Translations under genes and position numbers: made by a program
IMG/VR virus record: IMGVR_UViG_2511231170_000001
Direction: 5' to 3' (one strand)
Source of the DNA: a virus
Lineage: Duplodnaviria > Heunggongvirae > Uroviricota > Caudoviricetes
DNA: 23,325 nt
In this document: positions 3,251 through 22,261 of the stretch, piece after piece
Position numbering within the stretch: the first letter of the stretch is position 1
Layout: each line of letters begins with the position of its first letter
Notes under the pieces: generated by a model
Told to the model about the DNA's origin: nothing
What the model saw: the letters and a program-made list of their open reading frames with translations, nothing else
Database searches by the model: none

Positions 3251-4393
3251 CTTATGACCTTTGTCAAATATTAAGCCCAAAAAGACCTTACGCAGCTCCG
3301 GGAGCTTCGTTATATCGCGGATTAAAGAACCTGAAACAGTCAGACTGTATCTTGGATTTTACAAACTCTTATTCGGGGATTTTAGCCCCATGACGATTTA
3401 CGCAGTGAGCTGGCCTCTTTCTACGTGCAGGTATTAGCGCATTCTGGCTTCCCTGAATTCTTTTACGAGGATCACTCATTCCGTGTCTGACTGCTTCAGG
3501 GTTTAATTTTGCTTCTGCTGACTGAATGATGATTGGGCAGCAAGTGCAATATCCCACATAAATCCAGTCAACTCACGAGCCACCGCCGTAATGGCTACTT
3601 GTGATTTTTTCCCTTTTGCTGTCAGACTTCGGTAACGAGAACACAATCGTTGTTGAGCTTTCCATGCAATATCTTTGGAATATTGTGTTACAGAGTCCGG
3701 TCGGTAATATATAAGCCATGCCCCAACTTTTGCAGGTGTACGATAAGACCAGGCGGCTTCGTAAAGCAGACGTCTCAGTTCGCTGTTTCCAACTTTTGTT
3801 ATTCCTCTGGGACGAATACTGTTTCCACTGGAATATTCACCTGGCACCAGTCCCAGAAAAGCCATGAGCTGTTTGGGATTGGAAAATCGCGAAAAATCAC
3901 CCAGTTCAGCAACCAGAGTTATTGCAATTAGCTGACCAACACCTTTAAGAGCCTGCAACTGGCAGACCAGATTGCACAGAGACCACTCAGGTAACAGGCG
4001 AGATATTTCCTGGTCGAGTTGAAGTATGCGATCTTCAATCTGCTCCAGACTTTGACAATAGTGTTGAAAAGCAATCTGTTGAGATGGCTGACTAAATGAT
4101 TGATTAGCTAACCAGGTTCGATGTTTTCCTGTCCAGTGCTTTCCTGCATAATGTTTGTCTGTTCGCAATAGCATGCTCAGAATTCGCTGTCGGGCAACTC
4201 TGCTGTCTCGTTTAGCTGCTGCACGGGCTCTGATTAGATCCCGCATAGCTTCATGAGTCAGGTCAGGGATCCAGACAGGGGTAAGTTCTCCAGCCCGCAG
4301 TAACCTGGCGAGAGAAATTGCGTCCCGATGATCATTTTTGATTCTGTCTGTCGGTGATTTTGGTATGCGGGAAGGGGCAATAACCTGGCATTT
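3251..4393 (-). mobile_element. IS110/IS1111-family element, 3' portion (C-terminal part of transposase plus 250-bp 3' noncoding end)
   Basis: DEDD-type IS110-family transposase similarity; subterminal TATGACC at 3252-3258 is the inverted partner of GGTCATA at 15534-15540; the two parts sum to about 1.45 kb, a typical IS110-family size. Confidence 0.65.
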
Positions 4394-4441
4394 TATATTC
4401 ATCGCTGTGATTTTATAAATTAGTGTTTTTTGCTGTTTCAT
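3503..4441 (-). pseudogene. IS110-family transposase, C-terminal about 300 aa; the ATG at 4441 and first ~16 codons lie on the island side of the junction
   Basis: ...IKCQVIAPSRIPKSPTDRIKNDHRDAISLARLLRAGEL matches the IS110-family consensus; the N-terminal 77 aa of the same protein are at 15237-15485. Confidence 0.8.
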
Positions 4442-4537
4442 AATGTGCCACGTTGTTCATTATGTTTTTGATTTTTAAGCTCATTGCAATTTTTCTTGTT
4501 CCAACTTGTTCCACGTTGTACCCCCTTGTGCAATGAT

Positions 4538-4563
4538 CGGTGTAGTTAATGGTGTAGTTAATT
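4538..4563 (+). repeat. Left terminal 26-bp direct repeat CGGTGTAGTTAATGGTGTAGTTAATT (two tandem GGTGTAGTTAAT units); candidate integrase arm-type site or att core
   Basis: Perfect 26/26 match to 15154-15179; preceded by 10-bp-phased CTTGTTCCA repeats at 4495-4513. Confidence 0.85.
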
Positions 4564-4584
4564 GTGATGACCGGATTCAAAATT

Positions 4585-5814
4585 ATGAGCAGAGCACTTA
4601 ACAAACTGAGCGATACACAGCTAAGAAAAATCAACGGCACACCAGCCCCAAAAACCACATTTCTTAATGACGGTGGAAACCTGAGCGTCAGGCATTCCAC
4701 CAGCGGCTTATTAACCTGGTATTTCACCTACAGAGCAGGAGCTGGACGCCAGGTATCACCGGAACGCCTGAAGCTGGGAAATTATCCTGATCTGAGCCTG
4801 AAAGCAGCCAGGGAAAAAGCGGCACAGTGTCGCGCATGGCTGGCAGAAGGAAAAAATCCACGCCATGAGCTTAATTACTCCATACAGGAAGCACTAAAGC
4901 CGGTAACGGTGGGTGATGCGATCAGCTACTGGCTGGAAATGCACGTAAAGGAAAACCGTGTCGATTACGTATGCCTGAAAAGCCGCCTGAATAATCACGT
5001 CATACAGCATATTGGCAATATGCCACTGGATAAATGCGAGTTACGTCACTGGCTGGCCTGTTTTGACCGGATACGCAAAAAATCCCCTGTAACGTCTGGT
5101 CACATGATGCAGGCGTGTAAACAGGCGCTTAAGTTCTGCCGTAAACGTCGCTACGCAGTCAGTAACGTTCTGGATGATCTTAACGTGGTGGACGTTGGCA
5201 AAAAACCAGGCATAAGCGAACGCGTGCTGAGCAACAAAGAACTTGGCGAATTATTACAGGCGCTGGATAAAAAAATATTCCCGCCCTACTACAGCGCACT
5301 AATCCGCCTCCTGATTGTGTTCGGCTGCCGAACCGGAGAACTGAGATTATCGGAGATCAGGGAGTGGGATTTTAAGGAAATGCTCTGGACAGTACCGAAA
5401 GAGCACAGCAAAACGAAGGTCGCCATATTCAGGCCAATACCGGAAAGCATTTTACCGTTCGTCACGCAGCTGGTGGAGCAGAACAGACACACAGGGCTAT
5501 TACTCGGGGAACTGAAACAGGAAGCCAGTGTGTCGCAATACGGCAGATTCATGCACAAAAAATTAAACCATCCGCACTGGTCACTACACGATATACGGCG
5601 CACGTTTACCACGATGCTGAACGATTTAGGCGTGGATCCGCATATTGTCGAACAACTCACCGCTCACCAGATGCCAGGGATGCAGCGAGTCTATAACCAC
5701 TCCCGTTATCTCGATGCGAAACGTAATGCGCTGGACATGTGGACAGAGCGGTTAGAGATACTGGCGGGTACTCACAAAAACGTAACCACACTGCCAATAG
5801 CCAGAGAAATATAA
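4585..5814 (+). CDS. int: Tyrosine site-specific integrase (P4-type, N-terminal arm-binding domain)
   Basis: N-terminus LSDTQLRK...DGGNLSV...WYFTYR and C-terminal HDIRRTF...Y catalytic region; start uncertain (GTG 4564, ATG 4567 or ATG 4585). Confidence 0.9.
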   Translation: MSRALNKLSDTQLRKINGTPAPKTTFLNDGGNLSVRHSTSGLLTWYFTYRAGAGRQVSPERLKLGNYPDLSLKAAREKAAQCRAWLAEGKNPRHELNYSIQEALKPVTVGDAISYWLEMHVKENRVDYVCLKSRLNNHVIQHIGNMPLDKCELRHWLACFDRIRKKSPVTSGHMMQACKQALKFCRKRRYAVSNVLDDLNVVDVGKKPGISERVLSNKELGELLQALDKKIFPPYYSALIRLLIVFGCRTGELRLSEIREWDFKEMLWTVPKEHSKTKVAIFRPIPESILPFVTQLVEQNRHTGLLLGELKQEASVSQYGRFMHKKLNHPHWSLHDIRRTFTTMLNDLGVDPHIVEQLTAHQMPGMQRVYNHSRYLDAKRNALDMWTERLEILAGTHKNVTTLPIAREI

Positions 5815-6181
5815 TTTTTTTTGCGATTTTTTAGAACTGACACAACGTGAAACAACGAGACACCACGACGAACAACGGCGAACAATCTGGAACAAACTTG
5901 ATTAACATCTGACTGACACCCTAAAAAGTTGATTTTCAGTCGTTTTACTGGCTTTTTGTACATTGGCGAATCACTCTTAAAAACATGTAAAAAAGGCGTA
6001 AAAACAGAATTTTATGCCTTTGCACCACAATGAATTAAAAGAGTTTTTATTCTCATTACCACACTTCTGTAAAATGACCGCCGCCAGTGTTTGCCATTCC
6101 ATAAACACCCTGACACAATCCGACGCACCACAACACAATAGGACACCAAATAACTCTTTAAGAAATATCAAAGGGGGAATT

Positions 6182-6370
6182 GTGTTAAGCACAGATCGCT
6201 TTATACGTGAAAAAGAATGTCAGCAACTTACAGGCCTGAGCCGTTCATGTCGGTACCGCCTGGAAAAAACCGGACAATTCCCATCACGGCGTAAGCTCGG
6301 CGGTCGTTCCGTTGGCTGGTCTTTATCCGAAGTTCTGGCATGGAAGGAAAGCTGCGAGGCAGTTCACTAA
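6182..6370 (+). CDS. alpA: AlpA-family transcriptional regulator / excisionase-like protein
   Basis: GTG start after AAGGGGGAA Shine-Dalgarno; ...GLSRSCRYRLEKTGQFPSRRKLGGRSVGWSLSEVLAWKE resembles AlpA. Confidence 0.8.
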   Translation: MLSTDRFIREKECQQLTGLSRSCRYRLEKTGQFPSRRKLGGRSVGWSLSEVLAWKESCEAVH

Positions 6371-6898
6371 TCAGGCTGGCGGCACACAGCCGCCACCCAT
6401 CCACTAATACAGAGATCTAACCATGAATACTGGATATTCTCCCGAACAAGGGCGGGGCTTCGTTCGTCCTGAAAAACAGAATCTGCAAAATTTTGCCGAA
6501 ATTATTCCGGTTATTTCCGGCCTTACTGGCGGGAGTGAAACCAATATTGTTAACGCCAGAGCGTTGCAGATGTTTGATGATAAAAAGGGAGTAAATTTAA
6601 CTTACACCCCTGACGGCAATCAGAATATGAGCATTATCTCTGAGTCAGGTTTCTACAAACTAATAAAAACAAAAAGCGCCCCGTTGCCGGAGCGCCTTTG
6701 TGAACAATTAACCTACTGCGCAAAAAATGAATCTGAGCAGTGGGATTATATCAACCGTGTGGCGAAGCGCCACAATTGCCGGATAACAGGCAAAACAAAG
6801 GCCACCCGCTACGGTGGCCCCTCGACACAAGCTACACGTTATCCCCAACGCATGAGCATCACCAACAATGCCACATTTGCGGCTGGTGGGCAATGTGA

Positions 6899-7087
6899 TC
6901 AGTCAGATTTGGTTCGTTCCAAGGTTTGCAACGAGAGCTTTTTCCTGTGCTCTTTAAGGAATTTCTCAAGAGCAAAAGCACATGGCGCGAATCTTTCTGA
7001 TTCATGCTCTATCTTTCTGCGCCGTCTTTTCCGTGCCGGTGATAATGTTTTGGTCAATTCTTTATCGGTCATTGTGTTGTCCTGCAT
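6899..7087 (-). CDS. Small basic hypothetical protein, second gene of the leftward operon
   Basis: 62-aa ORF downstream of the RHH-like gene; hairpin plus T-run terminator on the minus strand near 6790-6820. Confidence 0.3.
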   Translation of the reverse strand: MQDNTMTDKELTKTLSPARKRRRRKIEHESERFAPCAFALEKFLKEHRKKLSLQTLERTKSD

Positions 7088-7129
7088 AGCAATGCGCCGT
7101 AATACCTTACACCACGGCGCTGATGGTGA

Positions 7130-7435
7130 TTACTCTGGTTCTTTGGTCTTGCGACGCTGGAGTTCTTCGCGTGCAACGGTGACAAGCTGCCCGATTTCTT
7201 CCGCTGCTTTGATGCCGATTTGTTCGACCTTAGCCAGGGCATCCAGTGACGACACAAGGGGATTTTCTCCGCTGCCTTCTGCTTGGCGGCGGGCTATTTC
7301 TCCGCGCATGGCGGTTACGATAAATCCGGCATTGCTTTCGCCGTCCAGCTTAACGGATTCCATCCCTTGCATAACATCTAGTGGGACTCTGACAGTTGTC
7401 AGTTGTGATTTTGCGTTTTTGTTAGCCGTTGCCAT
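7130..7435 (-). CDS. Putative ribbon-helix-helix DNA-binding protein; candidate island repressor
   Basis: AGGAG Shine-Dalgarno 7 nt before ATG; N-terminal beta-strand then two helices (TTVRVPLDVMQGMESVKLDGESNAGFIVTAMRGEIARR); divergent from the rightward operon. Confidence 0.55.
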   Translation of the reverse strand: MATANKNAKSQLTTVRVPLDVMQGMESVKLDGESNAGFIVTAMRGEIARRQAEGSGENPLVSSLDALAKVEQIGIKAAEEIGQLVTVAREELQRRKTKEPE

Positions 7436-7496
7436 TTCTGAAACTCCTAATCATCGGTGTGTTTCAGTATACACAAAAAAAGAAATACAAAAAGCC

Positions 7497-7534
7497 TTGA
7501 CGTGTGTTTCATGCGCTCATAACATGAAACACAC
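7497..7534 (+). promoter_or_regulatory. Rightward promoter (-35 TTGACG 7497-7502, 17-bp spacer, -10 TAACAT 7520-7525) overlapped by a perfect 12-bp inverted repeat GTGTGTTTCATG-N9-CATGAAACACAC
   Basis: Read directly; a further half-site GTGTGTTTCA at 7457-7466. Confidence 0.5.
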
Positions 7535-7632
7535 CAAAAGAATTGTTGAAATACAAAGAGCAACGCCCCGCAGTGCCGGAAACACATACGGGGCGTCTAA
7601 CCACCAACGATAGCAAGATTATCGAGGCTGCT

Positions 7633-7839
7633 ATGAGAAATCATACCATACACCCGCAAGGGCGGGACTCGCACAACCTGAATAAATACATCTGGCGTTT
7701 TATCGCCCTGAGTACGGCACAACCGCGCGTGATTACCATTGAGGCCACCAGCGAACAGGAAGCCCGTCAGCAATCACCGGCTGGCTGCGTGATGGTATTC
7801 GCCGCCCGTATTCGTCAGGGGGTGCACCATGTGCAATAA
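7633..7839 (+). CDS. Small protein resembling Icd-like (host cell division inhibitor-like) proteins of P4-like islands
   Basis: GAGG Shine-Dalgarno; motif WRFIA...IEATSEQEARQ...FAARI recalled from Icd-like annotations; uncertain. Confidence 0.45.
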   Translation: MRNHTIHPQGRDSHNLNKYIWRFIALSTAQPRVITIEATSEQEARQQSPAGCVMVFAARIRQGVHHVQ

Positions 7840-8065
7840 CACCCGTCCGGACGCAGCCGCCGAAGCAATCAAAACACTGATTGATGCGCTGATTGATATT
7901 TCTGTTATCGCGGACAGGGCGCATAAGCACGCTACCAGTGAAACAGAATATGCCGGGGCTTTCGTTCCTCATTCACTGGCTGTAATGCAACTTAGTGCTG
8001 ATATGGCACTGAATGAGGCCAGCAAAATTATCATGGCTGATATGGAGGTGGTGAGCCATGAATAA
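7829..8065 (+). CDS. Hypothetical protein
   Basis: 78-aa ORF, start overlaps the preceding gene's end. Confidence 0.4.
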   Translation: MCNNTRPDAAAEAIKTLIDALIDISVIADRAHKHATSETEYAGAFVPHSLAVMQLSADMALNEASKIIMADMEVVSHE

Positions 8066-8270
8066 TAATGAAGCGCACTTATCTGTAGTGCTGAATGTGC
8101 CGTCAGATTATACGGGGCGCGTACTGGTGTATCTGGAAAAAGGCCGGGTTAAATGCCAGTGCCGTTTAATGGAAAACGAATTTATCAGCACTCTTGCGGG
8201 ATTTTCTGAAATGCTCACTAAATCGGGTGTTAGTGCAGACCAGTTACGCGGGGGCGATTATGCGAAATAA
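8058..8270 (+). CDS. Hypothetical protein
   Basis: 70-aa ORF overlapping its neighbours by a few nucleotides. Confidence 0.4.
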   Translation: MNNNEAHLSVVLNVPSDYTGRVLVYLEKGRVKCQCRLMENEFISTLAGFSEMLTKSGVSADQLRGGDYAK

Positions 8271-8478
8271 ACATGATATTGAAGACCTGGCATTTGAAGC
8301 CCTGCACTCTGCGAAAAAAATCAGGGAAGTCGTCAATATGTGGATGAACAGCCTTAGCACCGATGAATCCGATAGCAGAGAGGAAATTCTTATTTCTTTG
8401 TTGTTAGACCTGGCAAATACACAGGTTTCTCTGACATCTGATATTGAACTCGCCGCTAAAAATCTGCCTCTGGAGTAA
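8260..8478 (+). CDS. Hypothetical protein
   Basis: ATG at 8260 overlaps the upstream stop (ATGCGAAATAA); acidic 72-aa product. Confidence 0.4.
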   Translation: MRNKHDIEDLAFEALHSAKKIREVVNMWMNSLSTDESDSREEILISLLLDLANTQVSLTSDIELAAKNLPLE

Positions 8479-8484
8479 AAAAAC

Positions 8485-8784
8485 ATGAAACAGAAAAATT
8501 CTGGCTTTACTGCCAGTGGTCTCCCTCGGCCTGAAATCCGCCCCGGCGATATTTTCCGGGATAACTACGGTGGCACGGTAACGATTAAAAGCGTGGCGGG
8601 GCGGTGCGTTACTTACCGCCGTGATGGGTACGGCTATGACTGCGTGATGCCTGCTTATCAGTTCCGGCGTGATTTTTCACTGATACAGGCCACACCACGC
8701 AAACAGCCCACCAGCAACGCAAAGGCACGGGCAAATATTCAGAAAATGAAAAACATGATTAACGCATTCAGGGGCAAAAAATGA
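8485..8784 (+). CDS. Hypothetical protein
   Basis: 99-aa ORF directly upstream of, and overlapping by 4 nt, the replication gene. Confidence 0.45.
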   Translation: MKQKNSGFTASGLPRPEIRPGDIFRDNYGGTVTIKSVAGRCVTYRRDGYGYDCVMPAYQFRRDFSLIQATPRKQPTSNAKARANIQKMKNMINAFRGKK

Positions 8785-21457: not shown

Positions 21458-21691
21458 TTATTGTCTTAGAGGACCGTCACTGGCGAGCCGCGTATTAAGC
21501 ACCTTTCCGGCATCGGGTTCAGAATTCCGGCAGCGCCAGCGTCGCTGACCTTCCGCGTTGCGGATAACCCAACGGAAATGCATTCCCGGGTCATCCTGGA
21601 TAAACACATTGCGGTAAGCTGTTATGACAGCAACCTCCTGTTCGCGTAAGAAAGGGGCTTCGGAAAATAAGAGTAATGTACAGCCCCTCAT
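21458..21691 (-). CDS. Hypothetical protein, possibly a gene remnant
   Basis: ORF only. Confidence 0.3.
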
Positions 21692-21808
21692 GTGTTTTCA
21701 CCTGAAAATAAAAAGCCCCAGCCATAATGGCAGGAGCGAATTTACTATTGATTTTAATAATGCGCAGATAAGACGCATAATTCCTTTAATAGTTTTGTTC
21801 GTTATGGA

Positions 21809-22261
21809 TTATTCGAGTGGATAGTCGCGATAGTGCCAGTATTTACCATCAACATAAAAGGTCACCTTACCGCGACGTTTACCCTCCCTATAAAACGTAT
21901 CGAAATTCCAGGTAACATTCTTGCCAGTTGAATAGCTGCCACCAACGACAACATCACCAACCATTATTGCATGAACAACCACGCCATAAGCGTTAAGTCT
22001 GCCTTTACCATTGGGGGAATTGAAAGGGATTCGGACAACGCTTGCTGCACCCCAGGGGTCAGTTTGTTCAACAAAGCAGAGACCTTTAAAGCGTAAACGT
22101 GCATTACATGGGAACTGGTTACGGTTTTGCGCGAACTCCACATATTCCGGGAACGGTGCACGACCTTTCTCAGGACGCTTTACTAATGCGGCGTCGCTAT
22201 CAGGTACGATAGTCATGAACAGGAAAGCAACAAAGAACGTTAAAATGTGTCGGTGTTTCAT
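21809..22261 (-). CDS. Putative secreted protein with N-terminal signal peptide
   Basis: Start at ATG 22261 after AAGGA; MKHRHILTFFVAFLFMTIVPDSDA signal-like N-terminus; AT-rich gene. Confidence 0.6.
   Translation of the reverse strand: MKHRHILTFFVAFLFMTIVPDSDAALVKRPEKGRAPFPEYVEFAQNRNQFPCNARLRFKGLCFVEQTDPWGAASVVRIPFNSPNGKGRLNAYGVVVHAIMVGDVVVGGSYSTGKNVTWNFDTFYREGKRRGKVTFYVDGKYWHYRDYPLE

Follow-up and report, generated by a model that had tools for sequence, protein, structure and literature searches.

Which protein reads a short repeat that recurs in 10-bp phase at both ends of an integrated phage satellite and again between its int and alpA genes? The question is raised by a virus sequence of 23,325 nucleotides (IMG/VR record IMGVR_UViG_2511231170_000001; this whole stretch of DNA is the window referred to below), for which a preliminary description had proposed that one protein, either the arm-binding domain of the integrase or AlpA, occupies both att arms and the region upstream of alpA and couples excision to alpA expression. 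In Gram-negative phage satellites the master inducer is AlpA. The available literature leaves undefined which DNA it targets and still debates whether it is a regulator, an excisionase or both. Genetics on the islands EcCICFT073 and EcCIEDL933 has revealed that alpA auto-activates, that induction requires it, and that over-expressed AlpA leads to excision in an Int-dependent manner; no AlpA or Int binding sites were found reported for these islands in the available literature.

Results

The window carries an island of 10.85 kb (attL to attR) that is an EcCICFT073-type phage-inducible chromosomal island (PICI) and a close relative of EcCICFT073. As in other Gram-negative PICIs, int and alpA lie at the left end, followed by a rightward unidirectional operon and a replication module with ori, the size falls in the 10–15 kb class, and there are no tail or lysis genes. 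The annotated genes comprise int, alpA, an Icd-like gene, DUF4222, a RepA helicase, SSB, capsid and decoration homologues and a Nu1-like TerS, with the capsid/decoration/TerS module corresponding to that of EcCICFT073. tRNA and Rfam scans of the window returned no matches. A scan of genome contigs with Int gave one locus only; relatives were taken instead from E. coli RefSeq matches and IMG/VR contigs, and ~90 related islands were compared.

Comparison with two empty sites fixes the true island ends at ~4410 and 15250–15259. On the left, the attL crossover TGTGA (4406–4410, plus strand) marks the first island DNA, the host flank being the C-terminal part of the ISEc45 transposase, whose interrupted gene (3503–4417) lies on the minus strand: intact ISEc45 reads ...ttcatcgcTGTGAgttgatgat, the window attL ...ttcatcgcTGTGAttttataaa, and in other genomes homology with the same island begins at 4407–4411. 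On the right, the attR core AATATCGTGA (15250–15259, plus strand) includes the secondary-site crossover, within GTGA at 15256–15259; the empty abgR-smrA site, which reads ...attattAATATCGTGAatgaataatc, was aligned with L002 attL, L002 attR and the window attR. The insertion in the window occupies a secondary site within the ISEc45 transposase gene, with a core of the abgR-smrA type. The ends had previously been placed at a 26-bp direct repeat, that is, ~130 bp off on the left and ~100 bp off on the right, and the two empty sites rule this repeat out as att core or island boundary. This is of use for annotation, since the repeat is conspicuous and yet does not mark the boundary. The idea that a second island lies in tandem with this one, leftward of 4540, is ruled out as well, the same 130 bp accompanying the island to every integration site. 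Because the true ends lie at ~4410 and 15250–15259 and not at the 26-bp repeat, both arm arrays described below lie inside attP, 22–124 bp from the left end and 110–139 bp from the right end.

Each arm carries a phased TTGT array and then a 12-bp doublet. The left arm runs from the core through two plus-strand arrays, A and B, to the doublet. Core-proximal array A (4432–4461; 22–51 bp from the crossover) reads GCTGTTTCAT AATGTGCCAC GTTGTTCATT and is kept in relatives. Array B (4495–4534) is composed of four 10-bp units with a TTGT core, CTTGTTCCAA CTTGTTCCAC GTTGTACCCC CTTGTGCAAT, with TTGT at 4496, 4506, 4516 and 4526; it forms the left part of the direct repeat D1 and is kept at six integration sites. 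The right-arm array, distal to its doublet, has three phased units, CTTGTGTCTA TTTGTTCCGC ATTGTTGCAT (15111–15140, plus strand), with TTGT at 15112, 15122 and 15132; it lies within D1 and is likewise kept in relatives. D1 itself is 69 nt long, combines array and doublet, and recurs as a direct repeat from one arm to the other. The int-alpA intergenic array (5837–5899, minus strand) has the opposite orientation to the arm arrays and comprises six 10-bp units, which on the plus strand read ACACAAC, AAACAAC, ACACCAC, GAACAAC, GAACAAT and GAACAAA. All motif copies named in the preliminary description were found at their positions (CTTGTTCCA at 4495–4503 and 4505–4513, TTTGTTCC at 15121–15128, and GAACAA(C/T/A) at 5870, 5880 and 5890), and the arrays proved longer than described, with four left units plus 4432–4461, three right units and six intergenic ones. 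Published rules for the sites of recombination directionality factors (RDFs) call for direct repeats one helix turn apart and at least three adjacent sites; array B, the right-arm array and the intergenic array offer 4, 3 and 6 adjacent head-to-tail repeats at this distance.

The arrays are non-random and helically phased, and it is their exact arrangement, not the count of a 7-mer, that departs from chance. Expectations were taken from first-order Markov simulations of the window, in which dinucleotide content is approximately kept. Seven chains of at least three identical 4-mers at exact 10-bp spacing were observed against 0.44 expected (~16-fold), in keeping with the phase claimed earlier, and three chains of at least four units against none in the simulations, these solely at spacing 10. 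Within the window no chain of at least three units occurs at spacings 6–9 or 11–13, with one at 14 and two at 15. All spacing-10 chains fall in 4495–4534, 15111–15140, 5837–5899 or 14629–14668, the last being a separate GTGAC ×4 array at 10-bp spacing that is unrelated to TTGT/ACAA. The enrichment check suggested previously is the wrong statistic and yields a false negative: GGAACAA occurs six times in the window versus 3.8 expected, a number reached in 17 of 100 shuffles, and is not enriched. We then scored the window with a matrix built from the arm units alone, significance being set by the best score in shuffles (95th percentile 16.4). The two halves of the intergenic array score 25.3 and 24.6 and are the best non-training matches in the 23-kb window, and array A, also outside the training set, scores 21.2. 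Repeats alike in sequence and arrangement occur both at att and, at a distance from it, in a promoter region; the top rank given to the intergenic array by an arm-only matrix, and the retention of the arrays in relatives, bear out the view that one motif is common to the att arms and the int-alpA region. A scan for the IHF consensus gave 24 matches versus 20.9 expected window-wide, without enrichment; IHF-like matches adjoin the arrays at 4461–4473, 5922–5934 and 15221–15233, which we note as a lead only.

Among 39 distinct intergenic sequences, the AACAA columns are 97–100% conserved versus 51–97% for the spacers, and L062 has a clean insertion of one 10-bp unit. Relatives integrated at five other chromosomal sites retain the arrays, their 10-bp phase and the ACAA cores, with drift in the spacer bases. 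The intergenic array lies 280–340 bp from the alpA start codon, and between the two is a conserved terminator-like hairpin (5994–6022, both strands), which folds at -13 kcal/mol (z -3.5) on the plus strand, is followed by a T6 run after the stem on the minus strand and shows pair-preserving changes in L004, L006 and L007. A sigma-70 scan found no convincing plus-strand promoter for int and weak candidates only for alpA, at 6091–6139.

The doublets, GGTGTAGTTAAT ×2 at 12-bp spacing, are located at 4539–4562 (doublet L, plus strand, P' arm) and 15155–15178 (doublet R, plus strand, P arm), spanning ~77–99 bp upstream and 134–157 bp downstream of the core centre. The int gene (4585–5814, plus strand) encodes a tyrosine integrase (PF13356, 2.8e-18; PF00589, 7.4e-17) that has an N-terminal Arm-DNA-bind_3 domain and is 87% identical to EcCICFT073 Int. 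Across the ~90 related islands, half-site type matches Int N-terminal type in 114 half-sites with 0 exceptions. Int type A (..SVRHST..GLL) always goes with GTGTAGT(T/C)AAT (70 half-sites), type B (..SVKYLTSGKL) always with GTGTAGT(C/T)A(C/T)T (40 half-sites; type B doublet GGTGTAGTCACT) and type C, in L010, with GTGTGGTCAGT (4 half-sites). In every island doublets L and R are of one type, and both switch with the Int N-terminal type. The clearest case of a domain swap is the natural recombinant L004, whose Int is 98% identical to window Int over residues 101–409 and 80% identical over residues 1–100, and in which both doublets are of type B and the left array is window-like. Covariation with the Int N-terminal domain, as looked for in arm-type sites, is thus a property of the doublets and not of the TTGT arrays. 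On the strength of this covariation and of their presence on both arms, we propose that the integrase N-terminal domain uses the doublets as its arm-type sites.

The array unit, by comparison, is constant across integrase types and varies with the AlpA allele (TTGTnnC versus TTGTTCG). In the recognition helix and wing, allele 1 reads RSCRYRLEK...RRKL and allele 2 RTTRYELEK...RLNL. Islands of Int types A and B can have identical arrays, and identical AlpA was found with doublet A and with doublet B. At unit position 7, islands with AlpA allele 1 have C (135) or A (25), never G, and those with allele 2 have G (31) or T (3), never C, a covariation that rests on few independent events because there are just two AlpA alleles. 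Among the islands that follow this rule are L010 (Int C with AlpA 2) as well as L011 and L012 (Int A-like with AlpA 2). In this set allele is partly confounded with lineage. In the window intergenic array position 7 does not discriminate, two units being TTGTTCG and one TTGTTCC. The array ahead of alpA ranks first among non-training matches in allele-2 islands, yet is borderline (L012 15.3 versus a 95th percentile of 18.0; L011 14.5 versus 14.7), and is for this reason not counted as independent proof; L010 has no array upstream of alpA. With the arm-only matrix, capsid-forming relatives show a further array that scores as significant and precedes the capsid operon (L006, 21729–21760). This is a place expected for a regulator and not for an integrase.

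AlpA (6182–6370, plus strand; PF05930, Phage_AlpA, 2.7e-18), which we propose as the array binder, is a 62-aa winged-helix protein that differs from EcCICFT073 AlpA in 2 of 62 residues (97% identity) and is the sole DNA-binding protein recognised in every island examined. Its predicted structure (pLDDT 89.9) has the GIsul2 excisionase (8c3t, TM 0.79/0.85) as top PDB match and also resembles the solved excisionases RdfS, TorI and Pukovnik Xis; the island accordingly encodes a small winged-helix protein of RDF type.

Discussion

Taken together, the data make it probable that the doublets serve integrase as arm-type sites and that AlpA, as excisionase and auto-activator, has the arrays as its operators. 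Binding of AlpA to the arrays we infer from sequence comparison and from the published genetics on the near-identical EcCICFT073 island, in which AlpA switches on its own promoter and, when over-expressed, sets off excision that depends on Int. The four doublet half-sites would hold the integrase N-terminal domain on both attP arms. AlpA would bind the 3–4-unit head-to-tail TTGT(T)C arrays cooperatively, as a head-to-tail filament like other excisionases. Following a rise in alpA transcription brought about by a helper phage, AlpA would fill the six-unit intergenic array, reinforcing its own promoter, and the arm arrays, bending attL and attR such that doublet-held integrase reaches the core and the island is excised; both the bending and the sign of regulation at the intergenic array are presumed here. 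The earlier proposal that a single protein occupies the two att arms as well as the region ahead of alpA, coupling excision to alpA expression, is in this way partly supported by comparative evidence. As to the binder, AlpA fits the arrays, whereas the integrase arm domain, the other candidate then named, tracks the 12-bp doublet. Several observations count against this assignment of the arrays to AlpA. RDF sites are usually found on one arm only and the window arrays are on both, with the right-arm array distal to its doublet, and array B lies just upstream of int, despite the finding that EcCICFT073 AlpA causes no change in Pint-reporter activity. The intergenic array is separated from the alpA start codon by 280–340 bp and a terminator-like hairpin, and the sigma-70 scan gave no clear promoter. 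To these are added the partial confounding of allele and lineage, the mixed position 7 within the intergenic array, the borderline scores ahead of alpA in L011 and L012, and the lack of such an array in L010.

Could the integrase itself occupy the TTGT arrays as arm-type sites, with the intergenic copy letting it regulate alpA or the int 3' end? Lambda P'1–P'3 are likewise ~10 bp apart, Int has an Arm-DNA-bind_3 domain, and arrays on both arms are typical of arm-type sites and unusual for RDF sites. The same arrays are present, however, despite differing Int N-terminal recognition segments (types A and B), a change of that segment is invariably accompanied by a change of the neighbouring doublets, and one arm-binding domain is unlikely to recognise two unrelated sequences; together with the array upstream of the capsid operon in capsid-forming relatives, this renders the account quite improbable. 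We also think it unlikely that another island or host factor, such as an OmpR/PhoB-type response regulator, binds the arrays while AlpA acts elsewhere. Winged-helix response regulators do recognise 10–11-bp direct repeats, function is unassigned for several island ORFs and IHF-like matches flank the arrays. A host factor is nonetheless disfavoured because the unit follows the island AlpA allele within the same host species. Arrays of 4–6 units are typical of RDF filaments; moreover, no other DNA-binding protein is recognised throughout the islands examined, and for AlpA an effect on excision and on the promoter region of alpA has already been established. That the likeness is functionless, the arm copies stemming from an old duplication (D1) and the intergenic units being a periodic A/C-rich stretch that arose by chance, is very hard to credit: counts of the plain 7-mer show no enrichment in the window and D1, as a single 69-nt repeat, is compatible with one duplication event, but exact 10-bp chains exceed expectation ~16-fold with chains of at least four units at spacing 10 only, the cores are 97–100% conserved against variable spacers with a clean 10-bp unit indel, and the layout is kept in islands with 68–87% Int identity at six integration sites.

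Returning to AlpA as reader of the arrays, one may go further and regard AlpA of E. coli PICIs as a single filament-forming master switch with a small operator-defined regulon, to which the two att arms and the alpA promoter would belong, joined in capsid-forming PICIs by the capsid operon; as a whole we consider this reading unlikely. Arrays on both arms, unusual for an excisionase, could provide a symmetric excisive complex and a block on re-integration of the excised circle. The order array, promoter, conserved hairpin, alpA could also reflect antitermination by AlpA loaded onto RNA polymerase, as is reportedly the case for Pseudomonas aeruginosa AlpA.

Comparison with Known Systems

The layout is known already from phages 186, P2 and P4, and the kin of the present system are 186 Apl, P2 Cox, P4 Vis and KplE1 TorI. 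Phage 186 Apl, P2/HP1 Cox and P4 Vis are dual-purpose proteins, excisionase and transcription regulator in one, and reuse the same repeats at distant promoters. For 186 Apl, direct-repeat sites 10–11 bp apart (five at att, seven at pR-pL) are of a type common to att and a distant promoter and at least three adjacent sites are needed. These proteins repress their target promoters, whereas the alpA promoter is activated by EcCICFT073 AlpA; their sites are confined to a single att arm, whereas the window has arrays on both. AlpA falls in Pfam PF05930 and not in the Cox/Apl family; P4 Vis belongs to PF05930 (Fillol-Salom 2018).

KplE1 (CPS-53) shares with the window the domains of its integrase IntS (Arm-DNA-bind_3, Phage_int_M, Phage_integrase) and, in footprinted attL, the order core, two blocks of short RDF sites, Int P' arm sites, int. 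TorI sites are GTTCG, 10-bp phased in the int-proximal block, and this core is contained in the allele-2 unit TTGTTCG. TorI and AlpA are distant (26% identity over 42 aa), and scanning TorI to E 0.01 gave no Phage_AlpA match, only a sub-threshold HTH_17 match. TorI sites are confined to attL, with torI at the far end of the KplE1 prophage, and both TorI and IntS repress Pint, whereas EcCICFT073 AlpA is without effect on EcCICFT073 Pint.

Helper-embedded PICIs have a doubled attP motif (tgTGTATTGCa ×2) in two co-oriented tandem doublets ~81 bp upstream and ~132 bp downstream of the attP centre, similar to the window doublets, whose sequence GGTGTAGTTAAT is nevertheless different; phased TTGT arrays are not described for them (PMC10111431). 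That motif is reported to be absent from other PICIs, with integrase arm domains, AlpA or an unknown protein as candidate binders (PMC10111431), and the covariation described here offers an answer, for which we propose the integrase arm domain. EcCICFT073 (PICI) and EcCIEDL933 (cf-PICI) are the E. coli islands that have been studied by experiment. Their site is roxA-phoQ, as opposed to the abgR-smrA type core and secondary site in ISEc45 of the window island, and they have the same gene order, arrays and doublets as the window; AlpA of the EcCIEDL933-type island L006 is 90% identical to window AlpA. The arrays are thus candidate AlpA operators for the EcCICFT073/EcCIEDL933 family.

Results

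The window is E. coli chromosomal DNA with 100% identity to strain GABEEC132, and its island carries int (4585-5814) and alpA (6182-6370) besides genes for an Icd-like protein, a DUF4222 protein, a RepA-type helicase, SSB, capsid and head-decoration homologues and a Nu1-like small terminase. The same gene set is found in the experimentally studied phage-inducible chromosomal island (PICI) EcCICFT073, located in CFT073 (L097, 15700-27220), with Int 87% identical and AlpA different at 2 of 62 residues. Directly 3' of the helicase gene, iteron-like repeats (AAAAAGTGGGTAGTAAAAGTGGGGAG and variants, ~84 bp apart) and an inverted repeat (10194-10388) probably mark the island's replication origin.

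The preliminary description placed the island ends at a 26-bp direct repeat (4539-4563 and 15155-15179), which does not mark them. Other strains carry the same island between abgR and smrA, and its match to the window spans 4407 to 15259; the junctions are fixed by two empty sites, abgR-smrA (attattAATATCGTGAatgaataatc) and intact ISEc45 (ttcatcgcTGTGAgttgatgat), comparison of which therefore gives the core as AATATCGTGA, with attR at 15250-15259. The abgR-smrA intergenic region is the normal site of this integrase; in the window the island occupies a secondary site inside the ISEc45 (IS110-like) transposase gene (3503-4417 and 15255-15485, minus strand), which has only (T)GTGA in common with the core (junctions 4406-4410 and 15256-15259). 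The identical ISEc45 insertion occurs in six RefSeq genomes. In the reconstructed attP, array R (15111-15140) and doublet R (15155-15178) precede the core, with 71 bp between this doublet and the core; after the core, a gap of 21 bp leads to array A (4432-4461), followed by array B (4495-4534), doublet L (4539-4562) and the int ATG (4585), an array being a run of 10-bp-phased TTGT/ACAA units and a doublet two tandem 12-bp half-sites. Array and doublet together form a 69-nt module (repeat D1), one per arm in direct orientation. IHF-consensus matches lie at 4461-4473 (minus strand, between arrays A and B), 5922-5934 (minus strand, perfect, just downstream of the intergenic array) and 15221-15233 (plus strand, between doublet R and core), and are a lead only because the consensus is without window-wide enrichment.

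All GGAACAA-type copies of the preliminary description (4495-4503, 4505-4513, 15121 and 5870-5899) were found, and the arrays prove longer than described there: array B has four units (CTTGTTCCAA CTTGTTCCAC GTTGTACCCC CTTGTGCAAT), the right-arm array three (CTTGTGTCTA TTTGTTCCGC ATTGTTGCAT), and the intergenic array between int and alpA (5837-5899) six in plus-strand reading (ACACAACGTG AAACAACGAG ACACCACGAC GAACAACGGC GAACAATCTG GAACAAACTT). Motif enrichment, proposed there as a check, is uninformative as a count alone (7-mer 6 observed versus 3.8 expected); the non-random signal is the arrangement of the units rather than 7-mer frequency. Simulating the window as a first-order Markov sequence gave 0.44 chains of three or more identical 4-mers at exactly 10 bp, against 7 observed, and 0 chains of four or more, against 3 observed. 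Spacings 6-9 and 11-13 are free of chains of three or more units; one such chain is seen at spacing 14 and two at spacing 15, all of them shorter than four units. The spacing-10 chains are confined to the three TTGT/ACAA places and a separate array of four GTGAC copies (14629-14668), directly 3' of the last island ORF (14341-14622). GTGAC arrays are also present in the related islands L004 (five copies) and L010 (four copies), both with a different packaging module, and are possibly a packaging or replication site.

A weight matrix built from the arm units alone was used to scan both strands of the 23-kb window for three-unit phased arrays. The intergenic array supplies the top non-training matches, its two halves scoring 25.3 and 24.6, above the shuffle-control 95th percentile of 16.4 (mean best score 12.1), which upholds the earlier proposal of one motif shared by the att arms and the int-alpA gap; array A comes next (21.2). 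Across 39 distinct allele-1 sequences of the intergenic array, conservation is 97-100% in the AACAA columns and 51-97% in the spacer columns, and island L062 has gained exactly one 10-bp unit.

The array lies 280-340 bp from the alpA start codon. Between the two stands a conserved hairpin (GGCGTAAAA...TTTTATGCC, 5994-6022) that resembles a terminator on either strand; the minus strand has a T6 run, and relatives carry pair-preserving substitutions. The hairpin could serve to terminate int transcripts or a leftward transcript, or to attenuate alpA. The promoter search returned no clear promoter, and phased ACACAAT-like units (6112-6141) overlapping the sole promoter-like matches score 5.9 with the arm matrix, which is not significant. 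Directly 3' of alpA lies a 396-aa ORF (6423-7613, plus strand) with no Pfam match. The RefSeq record identical to the window annotates no gene for it, and in relatives the hypothetical genes at this position are shorter or truncated.

Which protein reads which element was addressed by comparison with islands at five other sites (preA, roxA-phoQ, tqsA, rcnR-thiM and cspD-clpS) and 80 IMG/VR contigs, all of which have the module on both arms. Doublet type tracks integrase N-terminal type with zero exceptions: Int type A (..NLSVRHSTSGLL..) always accompanies GTGTAGT(T/C)AAT (70 half-sites), type B (..NLSVKYLTSGKL..) always GTGTAGT(C/T)A(C/T)T (40 half-sites), and type C (L010, ..LEIKHSKGGKL..) GTGTGGTCAGT. 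The L004 integrase is 98% identical to that of the window over residues 101-409 and 80% over residues 1-100. L004 is a natural domain swap, with type B doublets on both arms and a window-like left array. The same AlpA sequence is found beside doublets A and B. Taken together, these observations assign the doublets to the arm-binding domain of the integrase (Pfam Arm-DNA-bind_3), as its predicted sites.

The TTGT arrays are unchanged between Int types A and B and vary with the AlpA allele. With allele 1 (LTGLSRSCRYRLEK..RRKLGGRSVGW) the units are TTGTnnC, with 135 C, 25 A and no G at position 7; with allele 2 (LTGVCRTTRYELEKK..RLNLGGRSVGW), which accompanies Int type C in L010 and A-like Int with A-type doublets in L011 and L012, they are TTGTTCG, with 31 G, 3 T and no C at position 7. 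Sites, phase and covariation are direct observations; the two covariations amount to a double dissociation, with few independent events behind it because there are just two AlpA alleles. Of the two binders put forward for the repeats in the preliminary description, AlpA would thus be retained, since the arrays vary with its allele, and the integrase arm domain set aside, since it tracks the doublets.

In relatives with an HK97-type head module the arm matrix detects a fourth significant array, of phased TTGTTC units, 5' of the major capsid gene: in L006 (EcCIEDL933-type) at 21729-21760 (score 28.2 versus a 95th percentile of 20.4), in L004 at 21805-21836 (22.1), in L008 at 21892-21923 (22.5) and in L010 at 21588-21619 (31.0, allele-2 matrix). 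A position ahead of a late operon fits the sites of a transcription factor and does not fit those of an integrase. The extra array in these capsid-forming relatives suggests that the array-binding protein controls the head operon directly. L006 and L008 have a second, minus-strand array ~300 bp upstream. In allele-2 islands an inverted array 5' of alpA (TTTGTTCG, GGTTCG, GCTCG) is the top non-training match, with borderline significance; L010 has no array upstream of alpA. Some allele-2 islands (L010, 15210-16004; L068) have an extra gene between int and alpA and lack the array upstream of alpA, where only a short segment that includes a GTTCG-containing hairpin is found.

AlpA matches Pfam Phage_AlpA (2.7e-18), and its structure model (pLDDT 89.9) has as best PDB match the solved GIsul2 excisionase 8c3t (TM 0.79/0.85, 39% identity), followed by RdfS, TorI, Pukovnik Xis and filament-forming BldC.

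Discussion

Recombination directionality factors (RDFs, excisionases) are reported to bind head-to-tail on direct repeats one helix turn apart and to require at least three adjacent sites. EcCICFT073 AlpA is reported to activate its own promoter; its over-expression causes int-dependent excision, and the protein leaves a Pint reporter unaffected, and a Vibrio satellite AlpA has been proposed to be a TorI-like excisionase. Most likely, the helper phage would increase alpA transcription, upon which AlpA would polymerise on the six-unit intergenic array, reinforcing PalpA. On the arm arrays it would polymerise likewise and bend attL and attR, allowing integrase, anchored on the doublets, to synapse the cores. 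Here we infer AlpA binding, DNA bending and the dependence of auto-activation on the intergenic array.

A literature search found no paper mapping AlpA sites in PICIs, and we consider the finding real and useful. A 2023 study of helper-embedded PICIs (PMC10111431) reported a doubled motif, tgTGTATTGCa x2, at positions -81 and +132 relative to the attP centre, and named no single binder for it. The window doublets have the same geometry and are assigned by covariation to the arm domain of the integrase. For an RDF it is unusual to have arrays on both arms, and the right-arm array lies beyond doublet R as seen from the core. The left-arm order equals that of the footprinted KplE1 attL: core, two blocks of short TorI sites, IntS P' sites and intS. 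Apl, Cox and Vis use the same kind of repeats at att and at distant promoters. The present module, with a protein that is an AlpA family member, would probably work like these dual RDF/regulators and the KplE1 IntS/TorI module.
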